Below the pieces are notes generated by a model, which saw only the letters and a list, made by a program, of their open reading frames with translations, did no database searches and was not told the origin of the DNA. DNA of 64,000 nucleotides. Source: Botryllus schlosseri (Eukaryota). The translations under genes were made by a program, and so were the position numbers. Location: contig CM119380.1 of assembly GCA_051294905.1 (NCBI GenBank), positions 14,756,001 through 14,820,000 on the forward strand, read 5' to 3'. Shown here in pieces: positions 1,491 to 59,402 of the stretch. Numbering within the stretch: position 1 is the stretch's first letter; every line of letters starts with the position of its first letter.

Positions 1491-2438
1491 TCAATGTTCC
1501 AATGTCCTAAAGTTAGGATCAAGAGCAATTATCTCTAAAAATAGTTGAAACCTTTCCTCCAAGGCCACCCTTCTTTTCCAAAGCCACTCCTGTAAGTAAT
1601 GAGGAATAAGTGATCTTGATACCCCATTCAGCCTTCTAATAGCAGCTTTAAAAAAATTCCAAGACACCTCGATCAATTGTGTATTTATGCCTTCTGGGGT
1701 TACAAATTCGCGATCATGATTAACTATTGAATGTTTATAATTCATTCCCAGGTTTTCCAACTTGCGGTAGCTGGCGAATGAATCAGTCCATATAGTGGAT
1801 CCCTCTTTTACGTGTTTCATAATTATTTCTGATAATACAGAGGTTTTTCTCCCTTCTTCAGGTACCAATTCTGCAAACATTTCTCTCGTTTTCATATCTA
1901 TTCCAGCCAAAACCCAGCGTTGGCGTATTATTCTTCCACGATTAAATTTTCTTTTGGCCACAAACGTTTCATCAATTTGAATTACATGTGATTTACCTTG
2001 TGATATTCCCCCTATTAGGGTACCTCTTCTTTCCATTTCCCCAGAGCATATCTTACGAAGTTTCTTGGTCCAATTCACCATTGTTCTCTTGCTGACGTGT
2101 GCTTCAAAAGCTATTTGTCGTTGAGATACATCTATGGTCCAAAGATAAATCATCATTACAAGTTGGGTGAGTCTTATTTTACTTCCTTCAAATAGCGATC
2201 TTTTCCTTATGGACGTGGTAGTCCTGCACTTTGAAACCGGACACCTCCATCTATATCCATCCATAGTTCTTTTGCATTTTTCTTCTTTCATTTGTTGTCC
2301 ACAATTAAAACATGTTGCCTTTTGAACAAGGAGTTGCCGTGATCGCAGAAACTTTATACATTTTCGTTCACTTGATATTATACCACATCGAGCAAGATTG
2401 AATAGATTTTTTCTTTTTCTGGGTTCTTTAGTCTTCAT
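1491..2438 (-). CDS. Merlin/IS1595(ISXO2)-like DDE transposase 1
   Basis: N-terminal Zn ribbon (CFNC...RWRCP..C), SIRKRSLFE, an HTH-like region, and catalytic motifs IQIDET / WTDSFASY / NTQLIEVSW. Intact 315 aa. Confidence 0.9.
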   Translation of the reverse strand: MKTKEPRKRKNLFNLARCGIISSERKCIKFLRSRQLLVQKATCFNCGQQMKEEKCKRTMDGYRWRCPVSKCRTTTSIRKRSLFEGSKIRLTQLVMMIYLWTIDVSQRQIAFEAHVSKRTMVNWTKKLRKICSGEMERRGTLIGGISQGKSHVIQIDETFVAKRKFNRGRIIRQRWVLAGIDMKTREMFAELVPEEGRKTSVLSEIIMKHVKEGSTIWTDSFASYRKLENLGMNYKHSIVNHDREFVTPEGINTQLIEVSWNFFKAAIRRLNGVSRSLIPHYLQEWLWKRRVALEERFQLFLEIIALDPNFRTLEH

Positions 2439-2506
2439 ATTTATTTAGAACTTTATTGTCTTTTCAAAAGTAGTTTCTGTATATACAAACATTGGAAAGT
2501 TAAATT

Positions 2507-3013
2507 TCATGCAGGTATTTTCAAAACCATAAATTGACAATCGGCTTCTTTTATGGTTATTTCCTGCGTCTTCGCCCACGAGTAGATTTGAGCTTCCGGA
2601 AAGATTATCCACATTATGAGATCTCTTTCAGAGTCTCCTTTTTTTAGAAATTCCCGCATTTCAGGATTTACTCTTTTTAAAATTGTTACCCAGTTTATGC
2701 AGATTTCTGCAAAAGCCATTTGTATAGGTTTTTCAGGGTAAATGCTTCCTGTATAAATTTCTTCCCACTCATCTTCAACCAGATGTTTCCCAGGCCAATG
2801 ATTATTACATGTAGTAAGACCATACTTTTGCTTCCAATATTGCAGCCGTGGATTTAATTCGTCGTACATTATGTCACATAAATGATCCGTTAATGTATAT
2901 GTTGTTAACAGAAACTTCAGCGACTTTAATCCTTTGTCTATTAGTGTTTCTTTTTGGGGTATCCATATCAAATGTTGTATTTCCGGATCATCACAACGCA
3001 ATCCCAAACACAT
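2507..3013 (-). CDS. Hypothetical protein, novel family B copy 1
   Basis: Intact 168 aa ORF. MCLGLRC, NPRLQYWKQ and WIIFPEAQI match MCYGLLC, NPRVQYWQQ and YVLYPEAII in 6286-7146. Confidence 0.8.
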   Translation of the reverse strand: MCLGLRCDDPEIQHLIWIPQKETLIDKGLKSLKFLLTTYTLTDHLCDIMYDELNPRLQYWKQKYGLTTCNNHWPGKHLVEDEWEEIYTGSIYPEKPIQMAFAEICINWVTILKRVNPEMREFLKKGDSERDLIMWIIFPEAQIYSWAKTQEITIKEADCQFMVLKIPA

Positions 3014-3115
3014 TTTGATACTTTATTATGTTATACTATACAAAATATATAAGATCAGTTACCTATTGCCATGTTACAATACTGCACCGAATTTCAATAT
3101 TTATACTTAAGCATT

Positions 3116-4156
3116 TTACATTAGTCTAATAGTAACTAGCCAAACACTAGCGGCAAATGTACATTTTGAATGTATAGTCACGGGATTGGAAAAACTTTTC
3201 ATTACATCATAATATAATCTTGATTGTTTACGAACATAGGGTCTTTTGGTAGACGTTCCATTATTATATCCATTTAATTTTAAAACCTCCAAATATGGCA
3301 ATTTTCTCCGTAGAGAATCACTCAGAAATTGAACATGATTATAACTAAGGTCAATAGTATGTAAATATTTGAACGATGTGTTGGAGGACAGAGAAAAATA
3401 TTGCAAGTTATTATAATACAACGTTAATCTCTCTAAATTACACAAAGATTCAAGTATTGTCATATCAAATTCCACCAGTTTATTTTCATCCAGGTTTAAA
3501 GTTTCCAGTTTACTCAGTCCTTTAAACGCCCCTTCTTCTATAGCGCTTATTGCGTTTCTTGATAAGTCTAGTATTCTTAAACGACGTAAATGAATGAATG
3601 TTCCGTTCTTTAGTTTCTTTATGACATTGTTGTCCAAATATAGTCTTTTTAATTTTTCCATGCCTGCAAATTTTGATCCTTCTATTTCTGCCAGCAAATT
3701 ACTGCTCAAGTACAAACTTTCCAGTTGGTGTAAGCCTGCAAAGCTTTCTTTTTCAATTCGTGTGATGTAGTTTCGTATCAAATTTATCTCCCTAAGCTTT
3801 TCGTTTTTGCAGAAGACTCCTCCTGGTATGGTTTGGATTTTATTCCACCCACAATGCAACACCTCTACGTCTTTATACTTTTCCAATTGTCCTTTGGTTA
3901 TTTCCCGTAGGCAGCTGTCGTTGATGAATATCTTTACTGTGTTCCGGCAAGATTTTGCCAGGTATATCTTGTCAGGATCTGGAATCCTTGTATAACTCGA
4001 ATGATCACACCAAAGTACCAAATTGCTTCCTTGCATGCATTCCGGGTATAACATAGTTCGTCTTTCATTCTTTGTACATTTCTTTTGTTCTATTGTTTCC
4101 GGATAAATAGCATAACACGTGCCCAGCCATAATACTAGTAGTTCCACTCGGTTCAT
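3116..4156 (-). CDS. Signal-peptide leucine-rich-repeat protein (secreted or surface)
   Basis: Hydrophobic N-terminus MNRVELLVLWLGTCYA, a Cys-containing cap, and about 8-9 repeats of LxxLxLxxNxIxxIxxxxF. No canonical LRRCT cap, transmembrane (TM) helix plus tail, or TIR signalling domain. Single ORF. Confidence 0.88.
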   Translation of the reverse strand: MNRVELLVLWLGTCYAIYPETIEQKKCTKNERRTMLYPECMQGSNLVLWCDHSSYTRIPDPDKIYLAKSCRNTVKIFINDSCLREITKGQLEKYKDVEVLHCGWNKIQTIPGGVFCKNEKLREINLIRNYITRIEKESFAGLHQLESLYLSSNLLAEIEGSKFAGMEKLKRLYLDNNVIKKLKNGTFIHLRRLRILDLSRNAISAIEEGAFKGLSKLETLNLDENKLVEFDMTILESLCNLERLTLYYNNLQYFSLSSNTSFKYLHTIDLSYNHVQFLSDSLRRKLPYLEVLKLNGYNNGTSTKRPYVRKQSRLYYDVMKSFSNPVTIHSKCTFAASVWLVTIRLM

Positions 4157-4250
4157 TTTACTTATGAATTAGATAATTCACTTTGTTATTTTACTCCTTT
4201 GAAAAAGGTTTTTTGTAAGTCAAAATCTTATTTACATTCGTTGTCATTAC

Positions 4251-4907
4251 TCATAATTGTTCCGGTATTATAGAGTCAATGTTCACACTTTCCCCTCCGT
4301 AGGGGTAAGGGTGTATTTCTATACGCCTTATCCTTTTTGTTCGCCAATGTATTGAACTTGAATAGCCTTTTATGCCCAAATTATTCTGACAATTCCATTG
4401 TTCCATATGCGGCGGATCTTTACAAATTTCTCTCTCCTGGTACACGTCCTTTGTTATATTAGTGTTTGTAAGTTTCATCACCATTCCTCTAATTAATTCA
4501 TACAACATGACTCTTCTTCCCAAAGAGGTGTATTCCTTTGCTCTTATTTCAAATATCTCATCTACAACATGGTTGAATTGTTCAAGAATTTCTTCGGTTA
4601 ATTCCTCATCTAGGGCTACCTCTTCTAGGCCATTGTCTGTTTGTTTAACCCAATCAACTCGGTCCGTAAGCAATTCCCATATTGTTTCTTTAAACTGGTA
4701 TCTCTCATATTCGCTGTTATATTCTTTAAGATTCAATAGATCCAATTCGTCATATACATCGTACAAAAGACACCAATTTGTTGGATCGTAACCTTCAATA
4801 TAATCAAAATCTAGCATTCTTTTTTTTCCTTTCTGCATCAAAATATACAGATTTTTTTCAAACAAAATAGAAATTTCGCACAATTTACCATTTTCATGTA
4901 TACTCAT
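4251..4907 (-). CDS. Hypothetical protein, novel family A copy 2
   Basis: Intact 218 aa ORF. RRVMLYELIRGMVM and W..QNNLGIKGY are shared with 555-1214. Confidence 0.8.
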   Translation of the reverse strand: MSIHENGKLCEISILFEKNLYILMQKGKKRMLDFDYIEGYDPTNWCLLYDVYDELDLLNLKEYNSEYERYQFKETIWELLTDRVDWVKQTDNGLEEVALDEELTEEILEQFNHVVDEIFEIRAKEYTSLGRRVMLYELIRGMVMKLTNTNITKDVYQEREICKDPPHMEQWNCQNNLGIKGYSSSIHWRTKRIRRIEIHPYPYGGESVNIDSIIPEQL

Positions 4908-6165: not shown

Positions 6166-6285
6166 GGCTTGTCTAATAGGCTAGCCCTAAAAGTCCAAAT
6201 CAACCTATCCCATAACAAATATTACGTCTCTGACGTGTTTCCGAAGACAATTTCTAAATCAAACTAATAGTAGCTTATTTTCAAA

Positions 6286-7146
6286 TCAGCCCATTTTACC
6301 ACTAAAGGCAGCATGGGGTCCGTCTACACTGGGCCTCCGTAAAACTATCATTCGGGTTGGAGCCTCTAGTCTGTTTGGAAACCTACTGTCTCTACTGGTC
6401 GAAGACTCAATATTAAACAACGATGTAGTTTCCGAATTGGTATTTTTGACTATTTGTTTGTCACCCTCTTTTTTTAGCGAGTTTTCAAAGATTGATTCCG
6501 ACACTTGGTCAACCGGTAGAATAAAAACACCTCCCACATAACCAAACGTACTCGTGGACCCGTATGTAAATCTCCACTGTTCTAGATTTCCCCCAAATAG
6601 GAATTCAAATTCTGCATCCATCCTGCACCTCGTAAAACAAAATGTTTGTATGTTTTTTGCCCCCCGATATTGTTGCAACAGGAGAGCTATGGCGGTTATT
6701 ATCGCTTCCGGATATAACACATAAAGTACTATATGTCCTTTATCTATTTCGGTGTTTTGATCTAGTCCTTTGTGCATACTACAAGCTTCTTTTAAATAGT
6801 CATGGCATAATGTCATAAGTTCCAAAATCTGCCCGGTATTCTTGAAGTACGGTCTTACGTGCCTCATAAGGTAACATTGTTTACATTCACCATTCCCAAC
6901 AGGGTGAAAAAGCTTTCCTATTTTTGTCCAGCCCTCCTTGTTGTACATACATTGTTGCCAATATTGCACCCTTGGATTGTCCCGCTCACAAGTGCCGAAC
7001 AAGAGGCTCATCAAACGATCCCGAACCGGCGCAGTTTTTATGGTTTCCATTACCATCTGCTGCCTTTGAGTAAGAGTGAACTGCATTGCCCACTCGTAGA
7101 CAACCTTGTGATCCGTATTAGGGTTGCACAATAGCCCGTAGCACAT
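6286..7146 (-). CDS. Hypothetical protein, novel family B copy 2
   Basis: Intact 286 aa ORF with ATG at 7146 and TATAAATA about 25-30 nt upstream. Paralogous to 2507-3013 with a longer C-terminus. Confidence 0.8.
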   Translation of the reverse strand: MCYGLLCNPNTDHKVVYEWAMQFTLTQRQQMVMETIKTAPVRDRLMSLLFGTCERDNPRVQYWQQCMYNKEGWTKIGKLFHPVGNGECKQCYLMRHVRPYFKNTGQILELMTLCHDYLKEACSMHKGLDQNTEIDKGHIVLYVLYPEAIITAIALLLQQYRGAKNIQTFCFTRCRMDAEFEFLFGGNLEQWRFTYGSTSTFGYVGGVFILPVDQVSESIFENSLKKEGDKQIVKNTNSETTSLFNIESSTSRDSRFPNRLEAPTRMIVLRRPSVDGPHAAFSGKMG

Positions 7147-7329
7147 TCCTTTCTTTAACTAGTTCACTATTTATAATCTTAATACAAGATAATTCCTCGT
7201 CATTCATAATACACTTTAGGCACAAGTTAATAACCTAACTTTTATTCACCATAAATTCAGTCCATATAATTGATAATATTCACATCATTCCACTGAATAT
7301 TTTAGTTAAAACGTTTTATTGTAATTTCA

Positions 7330-7848
7330 TTATTCGTTAACGTGATGCGATGTTGTAGGTTGAGGCTGATTAAAGGATGATTGTTGCGAAAACATTATAC
7401 TACCAAAAGATGCATAAGTTCCATTTGTCGTGACATTGTTATTAGGCGGTGCATCATTGTTTGTAGTAGATGATGTCAGAGAGGACGTCAAGGGAGTATT
7501 ACTTGTCGATGTCGAAGAGCTTGCTCTTATCTCTGTGTTCCGATTCTGTTTGTTTGAGGCAGTTTTTATTAGCAAATATGGTTTTACTTTTGCTACCTTG
7601 CGATTTCGCAAGTGTTTTCTACGATAGTCATTTCGCCATGGCCATTCTTTGACCTTTTCATTACTCGCTCCCATTCCTTCGAAGAAGATTTCTGCATAAC
7701 GTCTAGTTCCATTTTTAATGTCCTCGAAAAAATCATTCCATCGTTGTAATCTTTCTGTCTTTTTCACCCCCCGAAGTTCCTCATACCATAGTTCAATATT
7801 TTCAATAGATAGCTCCCATAATTGTTCTTTAGTTATTGAGGCAGACAT
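7330..7848 (-). CDS. Hypothetical protein with Trp-rich N-half and Ser/Thr/Asn low-complexity tail
   Basis: Intact 172 aa ATG ORF, co-oriented with its neighbours. No family recognised. Confidence 0.65.
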   Translation of the reverse strand: MSASITKEQLWELSIENIELWYEELRGVKKTERLQRWNDFFEDIKNGTRRYAEIFFEGMGASNEKVKEWPWRNDYRRKHLRNRKVAKVKPYLLIKTASNKQNRNTEIRASSSTSTSNTPLTSSLTSSTTNNDAPPNNNVTTNGTYASFGSIMFSQQSSFNQPQPTTSHHVNE

Positions 7849-8868
7849 TCTTTAATTTACTGCACCGCGTTATTTTTACACCTTAAAAAATAATAATGTT
7901 TCTTTCAGCCGAGCTTATCGTATGATATCGTTAATGATATTTCAAACACTGAATTTTGTTAACTCTTTATTAATCCTATTTGGGGTTAATTATTTCTTTA
8001 CTGGATAAGGAAAAGTGTAATCTCTGGCCACTTGAGATGTGATGTCTAAAATATCTATTCCGACGTTTTGGCAGAGGCGTCAGCCTGTCACATAATGGTA
8101 TATTTTTATACATTACAATAAATCAGAGTAGTTTGCTCCAGATTCATCAAAAGTAAAATTCTCTACAAGCTCAACGCGACACTTTGTCCCTCGATTCCTT
8201 GTTTTTAATATTGCTGCCCCTTTTTTTTTTTATCATGAAAAACAGCCAATTTACTTAGATTGAGTCTAACTATACTCGCAATTTCGGGACAAAGTGCCGT
8301 TGAACATGTGTGACCTTACATTTGCGTTTGCAGTAGATACTGCTTACTATGAAACCTATGCACGTAGAGATTGACGCATGTTGGTCTCAGCTACTTGCGT
8401 TATCCATATGTCCATGCGCTGAATAGCCTATTCCTCATAGACTTAGCCCAGCGATATGCGGTAAGCCCGCAACAGGGCCTAGTTACAATATCCTTGGCCT
8501 ATGAATTTCTAAAGTTTTTTCGCGTTTCACGAGGTAGTGGCCTGTACAGTATTTCGTTAATCGAATGTGTCCCTTAGGCTGAAAAAGGTTAACCAGCCTT
8601 GACTAAACCAAACCTTTATTTTGTATCACCTACCAACCTAATTGTTCTCTCTTTCTTAAAGTCTGCTGAATAACCTATTATTATTCCATGGCTACACAAG
8701 AATTCTTTTTTTCAAACGAAAACACATTCGTCCACAATATGTAATTGTTTCACTATGAAGCACAGAACACATAACATATCTTGTAACAGTCGCAACATTG
8801 TCAATGCTCATTTTAAGATTTTGCTGATCACACCAATTTGTACATTTTAATCATATAACTTTCCGATT

Positions 8869-9390
8869 CTACTCGTTACACCGGGGGCGCCAAAATATTC
8901 TATCAAGGCGTCTGAGAGTGGCCTCGTCAAGAGGTGGTAACTGTTCATGATCTGAGGATAGATCGGAATCGCTACTATCAACTCCAGAGTCAGTGTCGGG
9001 TAGAGTATTCAGACTCTCATCCGAGTCTGTAAAATCACCGGACTCGGAATTCGGATAAGGTCCCGATTCATGATCTGAGTAAAAATAGGATTCCATATCA
9101 TCATGTCCAGACTCAGTATCCGACGAGATACTTAAACTATCATCCGAGTCGGTTAGATCTAATTCCGAATCGGTACTATCTCCCCAAATCGAAGGATTTC
9201 TTTCAAAATAGCTTTCCAATGTGGCCTCGTCAATTTGTTGATCATTTTCCTCATTTTCATCTGCTTCAGGCGATGTTTGGCATGATTTGAGAATTTCATC
9301 TATATTTTTTAATACCACAATCCACCTCCCGGTCCAGATTTGTTCATCCAGAACAGAGGGCTCCATGGCCTCAGCACTTGTCATGGCCAC
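8869..9390 (-). CDS. Acidic Ser/Asp-rich protein with internal duplication
   Basis: 173 aa ATG ORF with repeats TDSDDSLSISSDTESG / TDSDESLNTLPDTDSG and IDEATL / LDEATL. TATA-like sequence lies upstream at about 9430. Confidence 0.65.
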   Translation of the reverse strand: MAMTSAEAMEPSVLDEQIWTGRWIVVLKNIDEILKSCQTSPEADENEENDQQIDEATLESYFERNPSIWGDSTDSELDLTDSDDSLSISSDTESGHDDMESYFYSDHESGPYPNSESGDFTDSDESLNTLPDTDSGVDSSDSDLSSDHEQLPPLDEATLRRLDRIFWRPRCNE

Positions 9391-9777
9391 AATTGTACCA
9401 ACAAAGAGATGTATTGTAGTTGCTGAGCCCTATATATACCAAGTCTGTGGAAATGTAATAGGTCTATGTGTCATAAATTTTCCAAGTATACCACAGGAAG
9501 TTTTTATTTTTCTTCGTGAGTTAGCACCACAGTACGCAGTGATTATGATACTCGCCTTATTTTGATTCATCACTCTTTTTTTACATATGTCTCACCAGAA
9601 TATAACCATGATACCCATCATCCTAAACTCAATCTCGATGTTCATCTTTATTGCTACATTATCCGTATTTGCGCCATGAGACCACGCTCAAAGCGAAAAC
9701 TTTCTATCAATTATAATTAGGTGACTTAAAATTGTAGGTGATTGTACAAATTTTTTGTCCTGTTTCTTCATCTAGTA

Positions 9778-10170
9778 CAGAGGTCTCAAACTCAAACGTG
9801 CTTGCGGGCCATTTTTCTAGATTAGACGACGCCGCGGGCCGCAGCATTTATAGAGGTATTCTATGTCTTTCCAAGTAGGCCTTATTTTGGCGGGAATGAA
9901 TTTTTCTATTGAGAGTGAGTCGATCCAGCAGACTGACAGTAACCACACATCGCCAAAATATGATTTAGATTTGTATAAATTTTGGCCTGGCACGAAAAAA
10001 ATCATCATATTTATAACTATTTAAAGAGAATTGTTGTTGTACTTGATATAAATTAACTATAAGATATAGACACCATATGAACGGACAAACGTATGATGCC
10101 ATCATAAAAGTTATCACATTATAATTTTCAGCTACTATGAATATTTTGAATCCAACAGACCGATAATAGA
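9778..10170 (+). mobile_element. hAT-type MITE fragment (CAGAGGTCTCAAACTC end)
   Basis: Alignable over about 350 bp with the copy starting at 63539. The second TIR was not found. Confidence 0.7.
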
Positions 10171-10299
10171 GTCTGATCTGATTATTGTAATTCCTATCAC
10201 GATTCGGGTATACTTATGAGAAGTAGGCTATTAATCTCATGGCCAAATATCTTCAAATATAGGAGCAGAAAAAAATATAAATATAATATAAATAAACAA

Positions 10300-11460
10300 T
10301 GAATGTGTCCTAGTGATTGAAATGTCGGAACGCCGAACGTCCTATTGCTGTTACATCGTTGGGGCGTACCACTACGGTACTCGGTACCTTTAAGTGGCCT
10401 TAATAACATGATTTAGCGACCAAAGATGTAACTAACAGAACGCCAATGTCATAACCATACTTGCTCAGTTAGCGAAATACCAAGCTGCGACCTTCTGATC
10501 TGTTACAAGTTCTTTTATTGTCAAACAATTGTACCAATTGGCCATTAAATACCAGATCTTGTGACGGAACATCTCCTACCTAACGCACTTATCTTTCGGG
10601 TTTAATATCAAATTATAGGGATCTATGCCTCAATTGATCAATTCATAGCCCTCCTTCAGTACCGTTATTACTATGTCCAACACTACATCCCTCAGTTCGT
10701 GCTCTCTTACCCCAACTTTAATTTTCTTAAATACATACATGGAGTATGGCTATGTTATTTAACTGTCGTATGGCCTGTATTCCATCTCTAATACACCCTT
10801 AATGAAACTATTACTCATGCCTCCTTCAAATACTAAGTCACCAACCTACATTCTAAACTCGGTTTACTTCCTTATAATCATGAACCGCCGGTATATGAGA
10901 TAGAGCCTCAGTGCATGGCGCATGCCATTCTTTTTTTGTTAACAATTCCGAATTTGCGTAATAGATCACAATCAGATTTGGATGGACATGTTTGATCAAT
11001 GTTAACGCGAAAATATTCCAAAAATTAGTCCTAATTTTTTGTTCGTGACTTTTGTGTGCATGCCCATTGAGAGAGTACTGACTAGATATGCGCTTACTAC
11101 TTAGCTAATTAGTTACTGTATAATTCTAGATATTTAGCTGTCTGAATCTTTCAATTAATAAGCTACGTCATTCATACATCAACAATTCTTGTTCTTGGTC
11201 CATTGCCAACATGAGTACTGCGTAAAAGGCTGCGGGTTGTACCACAATTTCTCCCACGTTTGCTAATTCAATCTAACTTGAACATTACCTTAGGCGCTCA
11301 TTCATTTACCAACCTTGATATCAAGGCTAAAAGCGACATAAACTAAGTGGTAGCAGGTCACGCGCCATTTTCCAAGCACGACTTTACGCCATTTTGATTA
11401 CATAAATTCTTGCTTGGCTCAAACCAGCCGCGTGGTGGCGCCGACAACCCACTGATTCAA
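10300..11460 (-). pseudogene. Heavily decayed BEL/Pao LTR-retrotransposon pol (RT and RNase H/peptidase A17 region); may extend to about 12400
   Basis: Ordered relic motifs across stops and frameshifts: RHHAA (LPHHAV), NGVKSCLENG (NGxSLNxxLxxGP), VAFSLDIK...QVRL (VAxxxDIxKxFxQV), KGVL...PYD (KRxVLSxxxxxYDPLG), VAAWYF, SLVAKS..PLK (AKSRVAPLK). Confidence 0.65.
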
Positions 11461-14400: not shown

Positions 14401-15733
14401 CAGGAAGCTATCTATACTACTCTTCCTTGTTATGGCAAACGCTCGTTATTGAATTATTTTACCGCAATGTTTAGTCGTCGAGGCGAGTTGTAGTTACAAA
14501 TACAGTTAATTTCTGGCACTTAGAAGTTAGTGTTTCTCAACCGAGATACACGTAATTTTTGGGAGATACCAGAATTGGCAAGAGATATGTCTTTCCAATG
14601 GGATATATAGAGCTGTATCAGGTCTGGATTACCCTGAATCGGCGCCCAACCATTGATAAGGTAGTTATATATACAATATTGTCTCCAATGTAATACTGTA
14701 TTCCACTTGTTTGCGATGTTACCAGTATTTCTAGTTGTCAGCCTAGCCCAATGGTCTAGTTAGATGTTATAAAGTCCATACTGTTTCATGTTACATGTCA
14801 TTTTATACGATAGATCAGATTTACCTGTAGCGGTATTACCTGCCTATGTAAATAAATGCCATATTGTAGTGAATGTAGCAATTGACGTGACATAGCCATT
14901 CAGGGTCAAGACACCTTCCATACCATATATATTCAGACCGAGTGGTCATAGTGGTTAACCAATGAAACTTCCTGGAATTAACTAGATACACCAATAATGC
15001 TGTATTGTTTAAATTTTAATAAATTAATAATCCATTTAAGCATACACACTCACCTTAGTTTATTTTTATAATTCGAAATAGAGGATTGAATAAATCACCA
15101 TGATTCACGACAGCATTGGCTGTAAGCTTAAACTTCTTATGTTCATGTCACCATGTCGGATGGATGCCCCATAAGCAGCACTATCATGGAATGATTAGTT
15201 GCTCTCATGGATCACATAAACTTTGCGTGATAAATCCAAACATATGCTATATACCACAATCTTTGTCTGCATTTGATTATTTGATGACTTGAAATTGGCT
15301 CACTAATTTTACTCCGAATTTAATTCATAAACCGGTATACCGAATCAATTCAGATATTAGTCAGTTGCTTGAGGCCAGTGACTCGAGAGACCATGGGCTT
15401 GTATATAGTATCACCCAATACAGCGATTATTGGCATTTCTTGTAGTCTAAATGCTACTGTTAACCCTGTGCAATGCACGGTACAATATGTGTGGCGGCTC
15501 TGATACTTAATAGGTTGGTGATTGTGCTATTGTCGATTGAAATTACCGCTTTTACAACAGTTACTCATCATCTAATACTGTTATATTTAAGTTATGTAAA
15601 TAACAGCTACAGTAGCATAACGCGTCGAAGGCAGGCTGATACTATAAACCTTAAAATTCCAGATCCACTGTCATTATTTGCCTCAAATGATTGTATTTGC
15701 AAACGTCTTTAGCAGGGATTATCCATACTTCTT

Positions 15734-16096
15734 TTAGACACAGGTATCATTATGAGTGAGTGAGTGTTTGGCGTGTCGTGATTCTATTTCGTGGTATATT
15801 TTGCGCTTATATCCGTATATCCTGCTATCCAACGCAATCCTTATCATCCTAACCGTGAAGCACAAGCGTTTATACTTTAGTAGCGCAAAATGAATCAACT
15901 TCTGACAATAGGTCAGGTCGAAGCAAGAGTCAGATTGTATTCCAAAATACGTGCTATTAGTAAAATTATTGATCCCATACGCATGTATATTACTAAAAAT
16001 CAATGTAATATCGTTTGTATTGTTAGTCACGTGATAAGGATAGATTTTAAGGACGTATTCTCTTAAGCGATGTGCTCCTTGTGTTGTTTTTGTCAT
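15734..16096 (-). pseudogene. Possible ORF fragment with several N-X-S/T sites; function unknown
   Basis: 120 aa ATG ORF containing NNT, NFT, NST and NDT. Downstream frames are broken. No family recognised. Confidence 0.25.
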
Positions 16097-16159
16097 TTAA
16101 TTCTACTGTATAGCAGCGTTGGAATCTAGTCACTTCCTCCGGCACTGCAGCATAGCCTT

Positions 16160-16402
16160 GTCAAAAACTCACTTTAATTTTACGGACCAGTTATTAGCGT
16201 TCATATTGAATTAGAATCGAGTGTTTAGAATTTGTTTTGTATAGTAAGGATGTCAGTGTAGCGAGTGATTATAATATAAGTCAAAAACTCACTTTAATTT
16301 TACGGACCAGTTATTAGCGTTCATATTGAATTAGAATCGAGTGTTTAGAATTTGTTTTGTATAGTAAGGATGTCAGTGTAGCGAGTGATTATAATATAAG
16401 TC
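16160..16402. repeat. Perfect 120-bp tandem duplication (2 copies)
   Basis: The unit gtcaaaaactcacttt...gattataatataa starts at 16160 and again at 16280; the copies are identical by eye. Confidence 0.95.
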
Positions 16403-17040
16403 TCATATCATAGCTATAAGTACCACGTTGATTTTCTCTCTCCCCTTTATAGAAAGGTGAGCATTAGTATAATTTTATATTATCGAAATTTTACTAGGTG
16501 CCATGACAAGAAATAGTCCACACATTGTAATAATAGCTTTCAACTTTTTAGTAACATTTGGTATAACTGATACAGTCTCCACGCGACAATATAAGATTGG
16601 CCGTCTGTACCGTGACGACCCAAGTTATACTCAGGTCTGTTATCTTGACATACCAAAACTTGTTGAGTGTCAACCAGAGCTGGTACAGAAACACGACCCT
16701 CGATTCACCAGTCACCTCCAGTTGACGCACATTCTAACTTGAGTCAATTCCAAGTCAATCGACTCTCAATGCGACCCAAGTCAAGCCAAGCCACTCGTTC
16801 CCTGTAGGCGAACCGCTCCAGGTCAAACCACTCGAAAAAGTCGACCCGAGTCACCTCAACACTGGTGTCAACCTATATATGGAGAGAAAAAAAAAAAAAA
16901 TTTTCTTTCCAACTGCTACCAGCACTCAACTCCCCTAACACCTTACAGTTTGGTGTGGAGTCAACTGATTTTTCCAGTCCTGCGCTCCGCGTTTTATCCA
17001 GTTTTGAGCGGAAGATCGTTAACGCGCATGCACCCCCCCA

Positions 17041-17385
17041 TCACCACGAGCAATGTGCTATTTTCGTAAAGTAGGGGTTGGCGTCCTTCCGATCATTCAT
17101 CAAGCAAATTTTTGTCGCTATCCTTTGTACTCCGGCATGATTAAGCCCCCCATTACAGACAAATTTCACCCTTTTGCTACAGTTAAAGATTTCCTGTTCG
17201 TCAATTACCCACTGTAGCGCTTCCGTTCCCACCATTAATTGTGGCCTTATTGTGCAAGATTTTTGCAATGGCGTGATCAACCCATCAATTGGGGTCGTAT
17301 TTTGCCGTTTTTGCTAAATTAAGTTTTTCCTATTCGTCAATATGTCATTGCAACATGTACAAAAATTACGCCATCCTGCTTCCAT
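17041..17385 (-). pseudogene. Cys-containing ORF interrupted by one in-frame TAG
   Basis: MEAGWRNFCTCCNDILTNRKNLI*QKRQNTTPIDGLITPLQKSC... continues in frame into the track ORF at 17041-17280. Confidence 0.35.
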
Positions 17386-17512
17386 ATTTACTTACTATTG
17401 CATTACTTAATCCTTCCAAATGTAATGCTTCCATATTTACTTACTATTGCAATACTTAATCCTTCCATATGTAATGCTTCCATATTTACTTACTATTGCA
17501 TTACTTAATCCT
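17378..17512. repeat. 49-bp tandem repeat, about 2.75 copies
   Basis: The unit gcttccatatttacttactattgcattacttaatccttcca(a/t)atgtaat starts at 17378, 17427 and 17476. Confidence 0.95.
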
Positions 17513-17808
17513 GATTTGGCTTAGCAATACCATCCAAAATTTCGCAATTACGTATTTCGCAAGAATAGTCGTTGCATAAGCATCGTTAACACCGCGAATT
17601 TGCCTCGTACGTTCTTGAACCCCGCCTACTTTTAGGCTTCCATAGGCAAATACAGCATGATTTTTTTAAACTATGTTATTTCAACGAAATTAAATTTAGG
17701 TCTTTGGATAATTTCACACGAATTCTAAACCGCGCAAATGGACCGAACACACCACACAACAACACTCACTTATATCTTTACAAAATTTCAGTGATTATTC
17801 CACAATAC

Positions 17809-20800
17809 CTATCTCAGTTTTTCGTGCAATGTTACTGCTGTAATATACGTCTTTCGATTATTCCGCCGAATAACATCCCTAAGATAAGTTTTTGCTGCGA
17901 CCCTCCTGCATTTCGCATAACATAAATACATACATCCTACCATTATTGTTACGAAAACCGCAAAAATCAAGGCATTGTTAAGTGATTCTTCTAAATCCTT
18001 TCTATTGTTAATATCAACAATAATTTTACCTGCTGCATAACCTTGTTCCATTTCTTGTAGTTTGTGCAGTCGTCCATAGAAGTCAAACGTAATTTGGTCC
18101 AGTCTGTCATATTTGGTCGTAGGTAAGGTATGCGGTATACTGAGTGTATCTTTTCCTTCTTCTTCGATAGAGGGTGTAATTGAAGAAAGTGCACTATTGG
18201 AAGCACTCTTCCAACTTCTGATCACATCATTGTTACTTACTGATGTGGATTCGCTCTGATAGTCCCCTGATGAAAGTATTGATGTTGATTTAGTTCTTAC
18301 CTGTAAGTCTTGCTCATTGTTTAAATTATCTAGTTCTGTATTAGAGCGGGACTTGCTGGTGGCGAAATATTGGTGCGTTTCGACTGTCGTTGCTACTTGG
18401 GTTGTATCAAACAGCACATTGAAATGCGCTCTTGGCGATGTTGTGTCCATGAGTTGATTTGTGTGATGACGTAATTGAATATAAGACTCAGGTATCTGCG
18501 TAACCTGGGGTGTTTTCCTTATTGGCACGGATAAGGAGCCTAACATTTCATCATTTTTTGAGGGTATTTGATAGGTCATGGTATGCTTCGCGATTACTCC
18601 TCTTTCCATTGGTACACGCGTTGTTAACCCACTTTCAGAAAAGGTGACTCCTGTTGTAGCAATACCATTGCTTTGCTGAGTGTCCATCTCTGTTGATATA
18701 GCCATAGATGGTTCCACAATTGTGAAAATATTAGTGGGACTCGTTCTGCGTCTTTCTTGATCACTAGTAGTTTTCACTGTAGTTAAGAATGTAGTAATAG
18801 ATGTAGTTGGTCTTGGGCTGGAGTTATCTTCGCGTGGGGAATGCACAGTAGTCAATATGGCTGGGAGCGGTGTCGATGAAGTCGTTCCGGAAATTACAAT
18901 GGCCGATGTCAACCCTCCAGTATATGGTGTGATTGCAGCAGTGGATAATGTGGTCGTAATACTATCTGTCGTAAGTGTAGACGTTCTTGGCGTGGAAATT
19001 GTTGTATCCCTTGTTAACTCAACCGTATATTGAGTATTTTTAGTCGATGTTGGAGTTTCAATCATTGGTAACGCCATTGTAGTTTCAATAATATTTGTGG
19101 AATCTGTAGTGTGAGCTACGGGTATGGGCCTACGTTTTAACAAAACATCATATTCTCCGTCTTGGTCATAGTAATCGTAGTAGTAATTTCCAGAGTCTTG
19201 AAAGCTAGTATTATCGTCATAACCGGCATAGCTAAATCCTTCGTCATAACTTTCTATATAATCGTAGTTATAGTGGTTAGTATTGTATTGATTCGTCATT
19301 CTTACATTTTCCTCAGTAAGTGTTATGGTTTTTTCCCGTGTCACAGTGGGTCCTGGAGTCGCTACAACAGAAGTGATATCATCCCACATACCAGTCTCGC
19401 TACTAGGAGGCACTCCTCGAGTGATTCCTTCGTAACTTACAGTCCTTGTCGTTATTGTTTCCGCGTTACTTCGTGGCATTACGGAGCTAGGAGGTACTTT
19501 TCGAGTGGTTCCTTCATAACTTACAACCTTTGTTGTTATTGATTCCGCGGCACTTAATGGCATTTCAGAGTTAGTTCTGATTTTGTTATTGTCCTTATAG
19601 GCATAAGGCGTATACACCAATATTCCAGCACATATTGTGGCTGTGTAGGCCACACTAGGTCGGAATATCCGGATATCATGAAACTGCACCTCTATGAGCT
19701 TGCGTGTTGACATATAGCTCAGTAACTCTTCATTTATCTTACTAAGTTTCTGAGGTGTCAAGGCTGACCGTAGCGCCTGACTTAGAGACTCCATCTCTTT
19801 ACCAGTTATGGACCTGTCCAATCTCCCCAGTTTTCTTCGCATTTTATATATGGGCAGGGACAACTGGCGTAAACGCCGTTTCGTTACTTCTACGTAATAC
19901 ATTCCTAGGCGAGCTAGATAATAGTCCATATTCCTTGTATTTTGCCCATTGCTTTTAAATGATGCAGTCAGGATAAAGTCACCTAATCTACCGGGTTGTT
20001 TACAATTGGGTAGACTCTTAGGCCATGCTTTGAGTGGAGATTCCTGACCTGCAGGTCTTGGAGATGCAATTTGTAAACGACCGTTGCCATGATCTGCATA
20101 CACGGGTTGATTTGTATATGGATCATATAACACTTCCTTAAAGGCCAACGCCGTTTTTAAACTTCCAATTGAATTACGACAAACCTTCTTATTTTTTTTG
20201 CGTTCACATTCTATGCTGCCTTGCAATATAGTCGGAAAATTTCTCTTCCCCATTATCCGTTGAGTATCATTATTTAGATGTTCGCGAAGGGCGTAAATCC
20301 TCAATCTAAACCAAGTATGACCATCAAAGTTCGCTGGCCTCTCCCTGGGGCCTGTCTCATTTCGAGCCTTCAACCACACGATGTCGTGATGTAATTCGGG
20401 TAATTTGACTCCTGCTGGCCATTGACTGTAGGAGTAAGCTTCTTGCGTTCCCATCCCTGATCCTCCGATGCTATTATCTATTTCCATGATCACAAAGTCT
20501 CTGGACAGTATATTTACTGCCAGATCATCTGTGAAAAATGAGCATCCTAGGCATTGTATCTGATTAGCTTCTCCTTGCACACATACGTTAAATTCGGCTT
20601 TATTGACTCTCCATCCCATGATATCCTCTGAACGCTGCTGGCACCTTGTTGTCACTGTTGCATATTGCGCCAAGATATTCATCACTGATAACTTGTACAC
20701 CGTCAACAGCTGGTGTATAGTAACTTGTGGAGTAGCATTAGGAGAGATCATCCGAAGAATAGCCCTAGGCACAGCCATAGTGCCGCGTGCTTCCCTTCCA

Positions 20801-21279
20801 ACCACATACTTCCATGTATGTATTAAACCAAAGTTATTCTTTCGACGATATGTTGTGGTTCTAGTCAAGGCTGCCAACGTAATATCGGGAGATATTCTTG
20901 ATAGTTTCCGATTGCACCCGCATTCTCTTTCATATTGTCTAACATTATTCCAATACCTCTTGTCAGACCCCGAGGGTGCAAATAACTTGTACAATTGATC
21001 TTGGCTAGCTCGTGTTGGACCAAATTTGGGCGTCTCTTCGTATATTGAAAAATTATTTTCCGTTTCACCTATTGGCCAACTCTCGTTTAATTTGAATAGT
21101 CGATTAAGGCGGATGTATCTAAGACTTTGATTCCGGAACGTTGTCCATCCTGTAAGATTAAATGCTAACCTCACACTCATAGCAGATAGGGGCAATAATT
21201 GGCCATGAATTTGCAGATATCCTCGGTGTAGTGTTAAAGCTACTGCCAGCACAATCCATAATTTAAAGTAACGATTCAT
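17809..21279 (-). CDS. Type I membrane glycoprotein with Cys-containing head, mucin-like stalk, TM helix and short basic tail (putative attachment protein)
   Basis: Signal peptide MNRYFKLWIVLAVALTLHRG and N-glycosylation sequons. Thr/Ser/Pro-rich region at about aa 570-1045. TM ALIFAVFVTIMVGCMYLCY. Intact 1156 aa single ORF. Confidence 0.88.
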   Translation of the reverse strand: MNRYFKLWIVLAVALTLHRGYLQIHGQLLPLSAMSVRLAFNLTGWTTFRNQSLRYIRLNRLFKLNESWPIGETENNFSIYEETPKFGPTRASQDQLYKLFAPSGSDKRYWNNVRQYERECGCNRKLSRISPDITLAALTRTTTYRRKNNFGLIHTWKYVVGREARGTMAVPRAILRMISPNATPQVTIHQLLTVYKLSVMNILAQYATVTTRCQQRSEDIMGWRVNKAEFNVCVQGEANQIQCLGCSFFTDDLAVNILSRDFVIMEIDNSIGGSGMGTQEAYSYSQWPAGVKLPELHHDIVWLKARNETGPRERPANFDGHTWFRLRIYALREHLNNDTQRIMGKRNFPTILQGSIECERKKNKKVCRNSIGSLKTALAFKEVLYDPYTNQPVYADHGNGRLQIASPRPAGQESPLKAWPKSLPNCKQPGRLGDFILTASFKSNGQNTRNMDYYLARLGMYYVEVTKRRLRQLSLPIYKMRRKLGRLDRSITGKEMESLSQALRSALTPQKLSKINEELLSYMSTRKLIEVQFHDIRIFRPSVAYTATICAGILVYTPYAYKDNNKIRTNSEMPLSAAESITTKVVSYEGTTRKVPPSSVMPRSNAETITTRTVSYEGITRGVPPSSETGMWDDITSVVATPGPTVTREKTITLTEENVRMTNQYNTNHYNYDYIESYDEGFSYAGYDDNTSFQDSGNYYYDYYDQDGEYDVLLKRRPIPVAHTTDSTNIIETTMALPMIETPTSTKNTQYTVELTRDTTISTPRTSTLTTDSITTTLSTAAITPYTGGLTSAIVISGTTSSTPLPAILTTVHSPREDNSSPRPTTSITTFLTTVKTTSDQERRRTSPTNIFTIVEPSMAISTEMDTQQSNGIATTGVTFSESGLTTRVPMERGVIAKHTMTYQIPSKNDEMLGSLSVPIRKTPQVTQIPESYIQLRHHTNQLMDTTSPRAHFNVLFDTTQVATTVETHQYFATSKSRSNTELDNLNNEQDLQVRTKSTSILSSGDYQSESTSVSNNDVIRSWKSASNSALSSITPSIEEEGKDTLSIPHTLPTTKYDRLDQITFDFYGRLHKLQEMEQGYAAGKIIVDINNRKDLEESLNNALIFAVFVTIMVGCMYLCYAKCRRVAAKTYLRDVIRRNNRKTYITAVTLHEKLR

Positions 21280-21365
21280 ATTATTATAAATTAGTTAGTA
21301 TATCTGTGGACTTATGAAAAAATTAAATTAATAAAAGTAAAATCCTTTAAATATATATGCGTGCA

Positions 21366-23882
21366 CTACATTTTTGTCGATTTGGTTGTTTTAACGGGGG
21401 TCGATACCGATGATATGTACATTGTCAACTGAGTATTCGTGTTCCGCCGTTGTACCTTAGGTTTTAACTTAGGACAGCAAAGACTGCTATAACGACAGAA
21501 ACAAAACAAGATGATCCCGGCCCCTAATATCAAAATTACTGGAATCAGAACAGACCCCAAGCCAGAAAAAATTCCGTTCACTCCCTTACTGAATATTCCT
21601 CCGACCGCACCTAGTCCTTCTTGTAGTAGATTTCCTGTACTCTCTCCTACAGATTTTATCAAGCTTTCGGCACCGTGTGTCATGTCTTCTATCGTTTGGC
21701 CCAAGTTTTCCATAAATTTTTCTCCTCCCACGAATTCGAAAGGCTTCACTGTAATATTCTCATATCGCCAATCAGAAATGTTCATGTACACACTCTTGTT
21801 CAGATCTTCTCTCCAAACTTGCAAACCCAAATCCACATTCTGTTGGGTTTGATCTATATTGATACGATTGGCACGTAGTTCCACTCCGATGTCATTCGTC
21901 TCATTGATGTAAGCGTCTCTATAGGCTGTTAATTGCTGAGCATGCTCTTTTATCCGTAACGTTCCTTGCCGGATTTTCGTGAGATATACCTTGCTGGAGT
22001 CAAATATTAACTTTCCAGTCAAATTAGCCAATTCGTCCAAAACCAATCGGTCGATGGCTAATTCGGCATCACTCATTTCCTTATAGTTTTGAAAAGAGGT
22101 CAAAGAAGCTGTTGCTTGTCGTATTATCATTTGTCGATTTCTTTCTATGTACTTTTCCATTAGTACAAGTCGTTTATCTGTCAGTGATGTCCTTACTTCC
22201 ATGGCAGCGATCGTTTGATCCAGTTTTTGTTGTTGTGCTATTTGAAGTAACGAGAGCTCGTTAATCTTTCTCCCTAGTGCAGTGGACCTCTGTGTGGCCT
22301 GTATCATTCTATTATTGATCTGTTGGCTAAGGTTCACCGTCTCTTCATGTAACTGGGAGGAAACTGTCGCAACGACGGCGATTGTGGATATTACGGCAAA
22401 CACAAGACATATTAGTCCAGACAGAAACCTTTTACGTCTTCTCCGCGCACCCCTTTTGGTACCAGCTCTCGATGCTATTTCTCCCTTAATTTCTATCGGG
22501 CCTCCCGGGAAACGTGGTCGGTTTAGCTCCGGATCAAAATGAACATGGTCCCAAAAGGCTGCCTTTAAAACGGGTCCACCCACTGGGTCGCGACACAAAT
22601 CCTGGTTATGTGATATTCTATTTTTACATGCTTCATCCGATGCAGTAAGAGAGGGGAAGTGTTTCCACATGGGCCTGGGAAAAGGTATCCATGTTGATAT
22701 AGATGCCTTAAACCTAGTCGGCACACCATCAAAAAGGTTATTCCACCTCATGCCCTGATTGCCGCGATTAGCATACACACTGTGATCCAAATTTGGAAAA
22801 GACGGTTGTATCCATTTTACTCTAGGAGGGAAATTTGTCGTTGGTAGATCACCCCATATAGTGGTATTCATTCCAGGCCAGAAATTGCACGAATGGGCTA
22901 TTACCCCACCATCAGGCCAGAAGTGCTCAAACCAGTACTGATTAATCCATCCCCCCTGGGCCCGGCATGGAATGAACTTATTGCGCATATACGGCCATGT
23001 ACTTATTGTAGTCATTACTATTTCTTGGATGATTATATCTGCCTTATTTGGTTCCAGAGCAGAAATCACTCCTCTAAAATTACACCTTGTACAGATTCCT
23101 TTTCTGACCCCCTTTACCCTCCAAGAGTGGTATTGTTGCCAAAAAACACTATGGGAGGCATAATCTTTATCTACTAGATGCCAGCATTGTGTAAAACTAT
23201 TGCTACTGGCATTATACTTATTTAATTCACTTAATTTTTCTTTGTCCCCGTCTCTCATTGGCTCTTGAAGACATGAGGCTTCAACAGCTGAATAACTTTC
23301 GAATAGTCGTATCATAATCAATTTAAATTTGGTAAGAGCAAACATGGAGTAATTCCTGCCAAGGTCATGATACCAGTAATAGTCCCCATTCCAGAACCAG
23401 CGAATCCTATAATACCCTATTGGACGTATGAACATGTTTGTTTGTTTAAGAACATCATAGGAAATATTGGGCGTGATCTGGCCCAGGCGCCGTTGACAGA
23501 GACAGGTGCGTTCAAATTCTTGTACACTTGTCCAATATCTTCCATGTGGAAACGCCATTTGTTGTAATGAAAAACGCTCAGCTACTACGTAACCAAATGA
23601 CTTGCTGTAAAATAGCTCAGGCCGTCTATATACATGTCGCTCCGCCGTTTTGTTGAAAATGCTCATCAAGTGATAGTCCTCCCATTGTGTATCATTTAGA
23701 GTGATCCATTCTTCAGGCAGGGGTCCCCGTAGTTCCCCTAGCGTCCCCTGAGTGAAAGACCGTGCCCTATTTGTTACAGGATCTGCAAGTCCGTGCATGC
23801 CTTTCGCCGCCGTATGCAGCACCAAATCAGACGTACAAATGATACCAACAAGGATAGACAGAGAATAAGGAAGGATGTCCAT
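21366..23882 (-). CDS. Class I viral fusion-type envelope glycoprotein (838 aa from first ATG)
   Basis: Signal peptide MDILPYSLSILVGIIC. Multibasic site RRRRKR (22428-22445) is followed directly by the hydrophobic peptide FLSGLICLVFAVISTIAVVATV. Then long heptad-like helices, a Gly-rich membrane-proximal segment, TM VLIPVILILGAGIILF, and a Cys-cluster tail FCFC..LCC. Confidence 0.88.
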   Translation of the reverse strand: MDILPYSLSILVGIICTSDLVLHTAAKGMHGLADPVTNRARSFTQGTLGELRGPLPEEWITLNDTQWEDYHLMSIFNKTAERHVYRRPELFYSKSFGYVVAERFSLQQMAFPHGRYWTSVQEFERTCLCQRRLGQITPNISYDVLKQTNMFIRPIGYYRIRWFWNGDYYWYHDLGRNYSMFALTKFKLIMIRLFESYSAVEASCLQEPMRDGDKEKLSELNKYNASSNSFTQCWHLVDKDYASHSVFWQQYHSWRVKGVRKGICTRCNFRGVISALEPNKADIIIQEIVMTTISTWPYMRNKFIPCRAQGGWINQYWFEHFWPDGGVIAHSCNFWPGMNTTIWGDLPTTNFPPRVKWIQPSFPNLDHSVYANRGNQGMRWNNLFDGVPTRFKASISTWIPFPRPMWKHFPSLTASDEACKNRISHNQDLCRDPVGGPVLKAAFWDHVHFDPELNRPRFPGGPIEIKGEIASRAGTKRGARRRRKRFLSGLICLVFAVISTIAVVATVSSQLHEETVNLSQQINNRMIQATQRSTALGRKINELSLLQIAQQQKLDQTIAAMEVRTSLTDKRLVLMEKYIERNRQMIIRQATASLTSFQNYKEMSDAELAIDRLVLDELANLTGKLIFDSSKVYLTKIRQGTLRIKEHAQQLTAYRDAYINETNDIGVELRANRINIDQTQQNVDLGLQVWREDLNKSVYMNISDWRYENITVKPFEFVGGEKFMENLGQTIEDMTHGAESLIKSVGESTGNLLQEGLGAVGGIFSKGVNGIFSGLGSVLIPVILILGAGIILFCFCRYSSLCCPKLKPKVQRRNTNTQLTMYISSVSTPVKTTKSTKM

Positions 23883-24011
23883 GGTACAGACAGTGGTGGT
23901 TCTCGCCACGTCATAAACTAAATATAATCGCGCACTAAACCTAGACTACCGTCTGTAAAAACACAAAATAACAGATGTCGTCATTTCCGTATTGGAACCT
24001 TATAACGGGGT

Positions 24012-24977
24012 TCACAAATGTGGTAATACAGGAGGCCCATCAAATTTGTCAAGATTATACCGTGGATCATTGTGTATGGTGCGCAGGAGTGCCAAGAATC
24101 GGTCAGTCTTTTGATGTTGACGTTTCCACAAAAACTCCCCTACGTAGTCGGCCAAAAGATGACGTGCTAGACCACGAGATCTATGTAAATGATATTTAAG
24201 CTGGCCCCAGGCCCCCTCGATTTCATTAGTACAAAAAGCTGTCCGAGGGTCCTTAAACCAACGGGAGTGGTCCACTACACCGTGTATATAACCCTTCCCC
24301 CAGCTCTCTATGCCCTTGTAGGAAGGATAGGCATCGGTTAGAATCGTGGACCCCTCTGTCACATTTTCTACTATGAGTTTTCGAAATACTTCAGCAGTTC
24401 TGTCAGAAGTTATTTCAATGAACATTTCTCCGGTGGCTTTGTCTATTCCTCCAAACCCCCAAATGGCTTTAACAGCTGGTCCTTTACCAGAGGCAGCCCG
24501 GCGCTTGGCTAAGTGCGTTTCATCAATAATCACGCAACCGCCTTCCTTTCCCAAACGTCGCTTGTTCCTGTGAAATTCGGCCGTACACAGCTTTCGCAAT
24601 TTGCCGCACCAGGTAACCGTTGAACGCTGGCTAATCTCAGCTTCATGCGCGATTTGGGTTTGCAATGCGTCATGGGCCCAAAAGTAGAATAAAATCAACA
24701 ATTTGGGAAGTTCTACCTTACTTCCTGCGAATATCGAGTTTTTCCGTATAGTCGCCGTTGTATCACACGGATTGCATCGCCATCTAAATCCATCACCGCC
24801 AGTGGTCGTAATTTCTTCATTCATTATTTTTTTACATCGTTTGCATTTCATCCTTCGCACCAACAACCCGTGATTTCTCAGAAATAGCACACAATCTCGT
24901 GTTTTTAGTAGTGCACCCGATTCGACCAGACTCAACACATTGTATGTTCTTCCCAACGTATCTGCACAAGTAAACAA
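24012..24977 (-). CDS. Merlin/IS1595(ISXO2)-like DDE transposase 2 (start codon uncertain)
   Basis: CKRC...RWRC..C Zn ribbon, TIRKNSIF, and catalytic motifs IIDET / LTDAYPSY / TNEIEGAW. The first in-frame ATG is only at 24851. Confidence 0.88.
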   Translation of the reverse strand: MFTCADTLGRTYNVLSLVESGALLKTRDCVLFLRNHGLLVRRMKCKRCKKIMNEEITTTGGDGFRWRCNPCDTTATIRKNSIFAGSKVELPKLLILFYFWAHDALQTQIAHEAEISQRSTVTWCGKLRKLCTAEFHRNKRRLGKEGGCVIIDETHLAKRRAASGKGPAVKAIWGFGGIDKATGEMFIEITSDRTAEVFRKLIVENVTEGSTILTDAYPSYKGIESWGKGYIHGVVDHSRWFKDPRTAFCTNEIEGAWGQLKYHLHRSRGLARHLLADYVGEFLWKRQHQKTDRFLALLRTIHNDPRYNLDKFDGPPVLPHL

Positions 24978-59387: not shown

Positions 59388-59402
59388 ATTGCCGCGATAG
59401 CT

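Follow-up and report, generated by a model that had tools for sequence, protein, structure and literature searches.

A Probable Multi-Copy Mobile Element with Two Divergent Merlin Transposases and Envelope-Like Glycoprotein Genes in Botryllus schlosseri

Results

Two Merlin/IS1595 transposases in a co-oriented gene block

We analyzed a 64,000-nucleotide stretch of the Botryllus schlosseri genome (GCA_051294905.1, contig CM119380.1), here called the window, with positions counted from its first letter. Its left part, up to about 25.3 kb, holds a block of open reading frames (ORFs) that includes two DDE transposases of the Merlin/IS1595 type, M1 and M2, and two large glycoproteins, F and G. M1 (1491 to 2438, minus strand) is an intact transposase of 315 amino acids (aa) that runs from ATG to stop between two ORFs that we call B and A. 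M2 (24012 to 24992, minus strand) is an open frame of 326 codons and the first gene in the reading order of the block. This order is M2, F, G, 8 kb of mostly noncoding DNA, D, C, B2, A2, a leucine-rich-repeat (LRR) protein, B, M1, A, and a BIR-domain inhibitor of apoptosis (IAP). A preliminary description made from the sequence alone had placed M1 correctly, both genes being on the minus strand, and had given 24012 to 24977 as the span of M2. An ORF does lie there, but the codon at 24977 is TTG, the frame is open to 24992, and the earliest in-frame ATG is at 24851. The options for the M2 start are a spliced leader, a non-ATG start, or a copy that is incomplete at its 5' end. The transposases were also said to be co-oriented with their neighbors, and all 11 ATG-initiated ORFs of at least 150 aa in 1 to 25250 share the minus strand, while 25251 to 55000 has no ORF of this kind.

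Judged by their sequences, both ORFs are real Merlin/IS1595 transposases. Both scored above the cut-off of 27 for the Pfam family DDE_Tnp_IS1595 (M1, 61.6 bits; M2, 39.1 bits), and M1 passed the NCBIfam IS1595 transposase cut-off of 75 with 97.5 bits, while M2 fell below it with 66.8. The two proteins are 38% identical over 303 aa (E = 6e-72), in agreement with the earlier wording that they are alignable but divergent. Residues D156, D219, E257, C43, C46, C66, and C71 (M1 numbering) were invariant across four aligned rows, with the M2 equivalents kept, and in a set of 100 relatives, the three acids together with C43, C46, and C66 showed conservation of 90% or more. Conserved His and Trp positions are also kept in M1 and M2. 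The preliminary description had named a Zn ribbon as well as the D-D-E motif; the acids and the four Cys residues hold up, but neither protein matched Pfam Zn_Tnp_IS1595 at E of ≤0.1, which places the Zn ribbon call at the level of a motif. The four-Cys motif is common in the transposase group (96 of 154 rows), and described Merlins are likewise without a Zn_Tnp_IS1595 domain in the accessible part of PMC8101967.

The predicted fold of M1, modeled from a 100-row alignment, was confident (predicted local distance difference test [pLDDT], 95). The top structural matches of the model were mostly retroviral integrases, with some viral transposases, at 9 to 18% identity and a template modeling (TM) score of about 0.3; in the model, this is a match to the general DDE fold and to nothing closer. 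Neither M1 nor M2 matched the rve domain, which together with long terminal repeats (LTRs) marks a retroviral or LTR integrase. The idea that the two ORFs are viral integrases thus survives as a description of their role, but in sequence they are ordinary Merlin transposases with a DDE-fold match only. Their nearest named relatives are from Styela clava (44%) and Ciona intestinalis.

Neither transposase is bounded by its own ends

Members of the Merlin group described in the accessible part of PMC8101967 have one transposase gene, terminal inverted repeats (TIRs) of 24 to 462 bp ending in GG, and target site duplications (TSDs) of 8 to 9 bp. Neither window ORF has the makeup of such an ordinary autonomous element, with flanking TIRs of 24 to 462 bp, an 8- to 9-bp TSD, and a single transposase without cargo; the block has 11 or more further ORFs besides its two transposases. 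Inverted repeats with a TSD of 7 to 10 bp around the ORFs were found in none of 16 settings. A scan that allowed only exact TSDs of 8 bp found TIR matches no better than 13/20 for M2, a score equaled by 13 of 30 shuffles, and 11/20 for M1, equaled by all 30. The same scan recovered the positive control, a host miniature inverted-repeat transposable element (MITE) at 30157 to 31013 with an 8-bp TSD and a 16/20 match. (The ends of this MITE start with CAG, and its 8-bp duplication is exact.) We therefore rejected a TIR/TSD unit closely bounding M1 or M2, since the scan scores were at shuffle level, in line with the earlier report of no flanking TIRs or TSDs. The spacers around the transposases are short, with 68 bp between ORF B and M1 (about 70 bp had been noted), 276 bp between M1 and ORF A, and 129 bp between M2 and F.

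The block from 6.3 to 25.0 kb is multi-copy

We aligned reads from 4 of 24 listed runs to positions 6301 to 26300, a range that ends short of M1. In DNA run X1, all 30 bins had depth. Across 26 bins of 6301 to 24976 (two MITE bins excluded), the summed contig depth, which is not a copy number, was 154 to 3270; eight listed single contigs had depths of 9 to 27, and each listed variant site outside host repeats was covered by 2 to 24 different contigs. The multi-copy depth was continuous from M2 to ORF B2, the noncoding gap included. The stretch from 6.3 to 25.0 kb is present as many divergent copies in the source species, and we infer tens of divergent copies of the element. From the bin at 24977 to 25643, X1 depth rose a hundredfold, to 166,000 to 432,000, on entering a host repeat; the loose ends and joints of this repeat begin near 25393 to 25420. 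In run X16, which carries a second species label, eight listed contigs covered 10,343 of 18,949 bp at 90.6 to 94.9% identity and a depth of 3 to 5, coding and noncoding DNA alike, and one of them bridged G and F.

The transposase-F gene order recurs at an outside locus

A metagenome scan with the transposase alignment yielded two loci, L001 and L002, from 168 candidate stretches. L001 (OFEW01001351.1) has an intact transposase that is 45% identical to M1 and 42% identical to M2, directly followed by a broken F homologue (27% identity over 820 aa, E = 3e-79) with its basic cleavage motif kept. The window has the same arrangement, a transposase directly upstream of an F-like gene across the 129-bp spacer, and there it is multi-copy. 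That this order is repeated at only 27% glycoprotein identity argues that M2 is a resident at the end of the element. In L001, a relic of a long interspersed nuclear element (LINE) stops about 370 to 380 bp upstream of the transposase ATG, a distance that fits an element end where the multi-copy zone of the window stops.

L002 has a broken transposase, a 38% relative. At 506 to 623 of L002, there is a 118-bp element with 35-bp inverted arms that start with GG (31 of 35 positions matching) and a 7/8 flank duplication; lying beside a broken Merlin transposase, it is a Merlin-type MITE.

The nearest outside relatives are at 73% identity for M1, 72% for M2, 71 to 76% for A2 (two relatives), and 62% for F. 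The M1 relative has the same length, 315 aa, and is also intact. These similar distances are compatible with joint descent of M1, M2, A2, and F.

M1 and M2 belong to two old lineages

We built a profile from M1, M2, and two relatives and took its 150 best matches, a set that leans towards the profile members. FastTree was run on 151 trimmed rows, three short rows being dropped, and IQ-TREE was run under LG+G4 on 32 rows (the 22 nearest plus a picked outgroup of 10), where the bootstrap was unsettled and the outgroup did not form one clade. Support was 100/100 for M1 with P0002, 99/96 for M2 with P0007, and 100/99 when P0017 was added to the M2 pair. On these trees, a single Merlin subgroup contains M1 and M2 as two old lineages, each of them with a close relative that is intact, and the trees together with an approximately unbiased (AU) test reject M1 as a recent duplicate of M2. 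Five of the profile matches (P0005, P0006, P0009, P0011, and P0012, with pseudoscorpion and krill records included) are 1400 to 1750 aa long and contain 3 to 12 Merlin-like stretches; they are possibly domesticated multidomain genes or joined gene models.

The composition of M1 resembles that of its neighbors, with a G+C content at third codon positions of 0.31 versus 0.28 to 0.34. The overall G+C content is 0.35 in 1 to 5 kb versus 0.42 in 17.8 to 25.2 kb. Two pairs of ORFs in the block are paralogous, A with A2 (E = 1e-5) and, weakly, B with B2 (E = 0.002), and this paralogy ties the M1 part of the block to the read-tested ORF B2.

Candidate ends of the proposed element

The left end lies beyond the window. 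The right end is probably bracketed near 25.0 to 25.4 kb, within 24993 to 25393, where GG-starting candidates on the minus strand are at 25324, 25249, and 25143, none of them proven. The host repeat at 25.4 kb was possibly inserted inside the element, in which case the end would lie further right. The motif at 25249 ranked top (0 of 300 shuffles as good) and was the sole exact match to a short pattern, but the probes had been chosen after the site was seen. For the L001 junction, the best alignment was instead to the site at 25143, and 110 of 1,000 shuffles scored as well. One arm of the L002 MITE shares nine bases with the window at 25249; an unbiased test was not significant. Repeats at 25780 to 26450, considered as subterminal repeats, were rejected as a high-copy host repeat.

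Gene content of the block

F (21366 to 23882, minus strand) is a likely class I fusion-like glycoprotein of 838 aa, a call that rests on hydrophobicity, motifs, and weak Atlas matches. Its predicted anatomy includes everything expected of class I, namely, a signal peptide, a basic cleavage site, a fusion peptide, and a transmembrane anchor, with hydrophobic stretches at 3 to 26 and 484 to 512, a transmembrane segment at 767 to 803, and 12 N-glycosylation sites. The basic cleavage motif at 480 to 485 is kept in P0004 and in L001. In the Atlas, spike, paramyxovirus F, and hemagglutinin matched F at 0.89 to 0.90, with a recognition of 1506, which is under the reliable level. F had no Pfam match, a sequence search of the PDB gave one chance-level match, and its structure model (pLDDT, 33) was too low in confidence for use. 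G (17809 to 21279, minus strand) is a membrane glycoprotein of 1156 aa with a Ser/Thr-rich stalk and a transmembrane segment at 1099 to 1124, and it may act in attachment. The N-terminal parts of F and G are paralogous (E = 1e-8).

The interior from 9400 to 17800 is mostly noncoding, with one 120-aa ORF at 15734 to 16096, and is multi-copy like the genes. Near 9773 to 10900, it contains a high-copy host MITE (depth, 25,000 to 58,000) with an 82% match at 63534 to 63661. Tandem duplications occur at 16160 to 16402 (two 120-bp copies, 100% identical), at 17377 to 17512 (49 bp, 2.8 copies), and within G at 19403 to 19564 (84 bp).

Downstream in the reading order and all on the minus strand are ORF D (8869 to 9384; 171 aa, acidic, without a family), ORF C (7330 to 7848; 172 aa, with no family above the cut-off), ORF B2 (6286 to 7146; 286 aa), and ORF A2 (4251 to 4907; 218 aa, a paralogue of A). 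These are followed by the intronless LRR protein (3116 to 4156; 346 aa), ORF B (2507 to 3013; 168 aa), ORF A (555 to 1214; 219 aa), and the IAP ORF (3 to 314), which is cut by the left edge of the window. B and B2 both had subthreshold matches to a PWWP3A/B C-terminal domain (PWP3A-B_C in B2), with E values of 0.004 and 6e-5, and B2 gave only leads under 0.82 in the Atlas.

None of the 13 block ORFs matched a gag, pol, capsid, polymerase, terminase, integrase, or herpesvirus family in Pfam, and tblastn with the gypsy pol of the window found no gag or pol relic in the block. F had no match in viral and metagenome contigs, and the transposases had none in viral and prokaryote genome contigs. Neither the B2-A2 spacer nor any other part of the window contained a decayed third transposase.

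To the right of the block, several repeats of 60 to 160 bp with 70 to 80% identity recur every 4 to 8 kb in both orientations at 32000 to 47500 and resemble exons of tandemly duplicated host genes. A young gypsy LTR retrotransposon at 55365 to 59536 has identical 134-bp LTRs, a 5-bp flank duplication, open gag and pol genes, an acidic tandem repeat in pol, and its own integrase, and it is unrelated to the Merlin block. A 192-aa ORF with a SAP domain (59686 to 60264, plus strand) adjoins its LTR.

Discussion

We propose that a single giant mobile element, present in many copies, has its right-hand part at 1 to about 25.3 kb of the window. In this proposal, M2 would bind inverted repeats at both far ends and cut and paste, or integrate, the whole unit, while F and G, as a fusion/attachment-type envelope pair, would let it move between cells. 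M1 would be an anciently diverged and catalytically complete internal gene of an accessory block, most likely a backup or trans-acting partner of M2 on the same ends. We favor this combination, with M2 as the terminal transposase acting on distant inverted ends and M1 as a second enzyme, kept as a backup or complement to M2, at somewhat better than even odds. Its parts differ in strength. The residency of M2 in the element is very probable, and M1 is probably part of the same unit. We infer the inclusion of 1 to 6.3 kb with M1, the termini, catalytic activity, particle formation, the role of M1, and any division of labor. The preliminary description had proposed that both transposases are residents acting on distant termini; for M2, the multi-copy 19-kb stretch and the L001 gene order bear this out, whereas for M1 it is only plausible.

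Several observations weigh against this account. M1 lies beyond the read-tested stretch, its cassette is one of two paralogous ones, and the B2-A2 spacer of the other has no Merlin relic, so either one cassette acquired M1 or the other lost it. An AU test rejected M1 and M2 as sisters (P = 8e-57). M1, M2, and the L001 enzyme do share one 14-row group, at 93/95 and unstarred, and genomic context is known for 1 of the 12 members other than M1 and M2; L002 has no F or G match in its 3,654 bp. Relatives at similar distances could also stem from separate elements. Depth sums do not count copies, and among the contigs listed (there are 84,870 further records), none spans the stretch and none bridges M2 to F. 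In the reads taken from RNA runs X23 (about 6%) and X21 (about 3%), depth over the ORFs was 0 to 1.1, and the ORFs showed no splice joints; they are close to silent in these samples, which says little about the germ line or embryos. M2 has no in-frame ATG ahead of 24851, and the class I assignment of F is a weak point. At 25249, an unbiased local alignment was equaled by 248 of 1,000 shuffles and 114 of 312 window tiles, which leaves this site a mere candidate, and we claim no terminus.

An unlikely alternative is that M2, F, and G form the resident module while M1 travels as a passenger that began as an ordinary Merlin, inserted long ago into one B-A cassette, lost its ends, and plays no role in movement, or that M1 belongs to a neighboring second element. 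The missing relic in the paralogous cassette, the separate lineages of M1 and M2, the shift in G+C content across the block, and the existence in L002 of a related Merlin without cargo all fit a passenger. However, M1 has a full-length ORF, an intact D-D-E motif, and a confident fold although its 68- and 276-bp spacers hold no end repeat, its 73% relative is intact as well, and the multi-copy depth is unbroken from M2 to ORF B2. We consider it quite improbable that one or both proteins were domesticated by the element as noncatalytic DNA-binding regulators or as repressors that protect its ends. Conserved Merlin ORFs without TIRs are taken as domesticated in the accessible part of PMC8101967. 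M2 does lack a settled start codon, and there are long multidomain Merlin-like proteins among the profile matches, but M1 and M2 keep the three catalytic acids and the conserved His and Trp residues, and M2 and the L001 enzyme are both first in their units, as expected of a working transposase gene. Retention of all three acids likewise disfavors the earlier suggestion that the pair was repurposed as DNA-binding proteins.

A similarly low probability, higher by a hair, attaches to the block belonging to a large endogenous DNA virus or a Maverick-type element that integrates by another route and carries the Merlin genes as cargo. IAP, LRR, and glycoprotein genes in an intronless, co-oriented block would suit such a virus, and the left part lies beyond the window. 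The 13 block ORFs, however, include no polymerase, capsid, terminase, or integrase family, F and the transposases have no match in viral contigs, 8 kb of the interior is noncoding, and a transposase comes first in both the window block and L001. Least probable, and largely refuted, is a set of host genes into which two unrelated transposons inserted long ago; LRR and BIR are common host domains, but this explanation is at odds with the multi-copy depth, the absence of introns, the L001 gene order, and, under a second species label, a relative that is nearly complete.

The proposed element with M2 as its terminal transposase can be compared with several known systems. The Merlin/IS1595 elements in the accessible part of PMC8101967 share with the block the DDE_Tnp_IS1595 domain, the D-D-E motif, and enzymes of about 315 aa, but the block has two divergent enzymes and no nearby TIRs, in a unit of at least 25 kb that also carries IAP, LRR, and envelope-like genes. 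The word "virus" is absent from the main text of that paper. As far as the accessible parts of PMC10175614 and PMC6431247 go, Teratorn, a piggyBac-alloherpesvirus fusion, is alike in that a DDE transposase serves a giant virus-like unit through distant TIRs, with the transposase terminal, at both ends, or internal. It differs in combining piggyBac with a herpesvirus, whereas the block has a Merlin enzyme, no herpesvirus core genes seen, and an invertebrate host; in addition, two-ended Teratorn forms are modeled as two copies of one transposon, while M1 and M2 are separate lineages with 38% identity. Nematode Mavericks, in the accessible part of bioRxiv 10.1101/2022.07.12.499685, are also TIR-type elements with a captured viral fusogen, cargo, and cross-species movement, but their fusogen is herpesvirus-like and F is class I-like. 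Maverick core gene families had no Pfam match in the block. The giant Burro gypsy elements of planarians (PMC6431247, accessible part) resemble the block in being large and in having an env region that is F-like and a BCL2 domain, which is anti-apoptotic, but they are LTR retrotransposons, and the block contains no LTR, gag, or pol and has a transposase of the Merlin type. Taken together, our evidence suggests a Teratorn-like hybrid of transposase and virus. A full-text literature search with few subscription journals found no title or abstract opening that joins Merlin or IS1595 to envelope genes; supplement tables of PMC8101967 could bear on this novelty.

A bolder version is possible but doubtful. 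It would make the unit an enveloped, hypothetically reverse-transcribing element without an integrase or LTRs that integrates through two old Merlin transposases in divided or cooperative work, for example, with one excising and one inserting or with a heterodimer on unequal ends, and that is able to cross species. The transposase-to-fusogen order would then be old, shared with a lineage in which F identity is down to 27%. Tyrosine-recombinase retroelements are the case for comparison, and such an element would be their DDE-transposase counterpart. If the part about gag and pol without an integrase were true, this would be a categorically new type of element.

Among described systems, Teratorn is the chief one in which a cut-and-paste transposase works for a virus-like genome, and a Merlin transposase with a class I-like envelope in an invertebrate chordate would be a second. 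L001 provides outside evidence that the transposase-F pairing is old and not limited to one assembly. With two transposases that are divergent and both intact in a single unit, it becomes testable which of them recognizes the ends and whether the second is needed. If our proposal is true, integrating virus-like elements can swap in an enzyme of the bacterial insertion sequence type, and the element would be a vehicle for horizontal transfer and for the spread of IAP and LRR genes.

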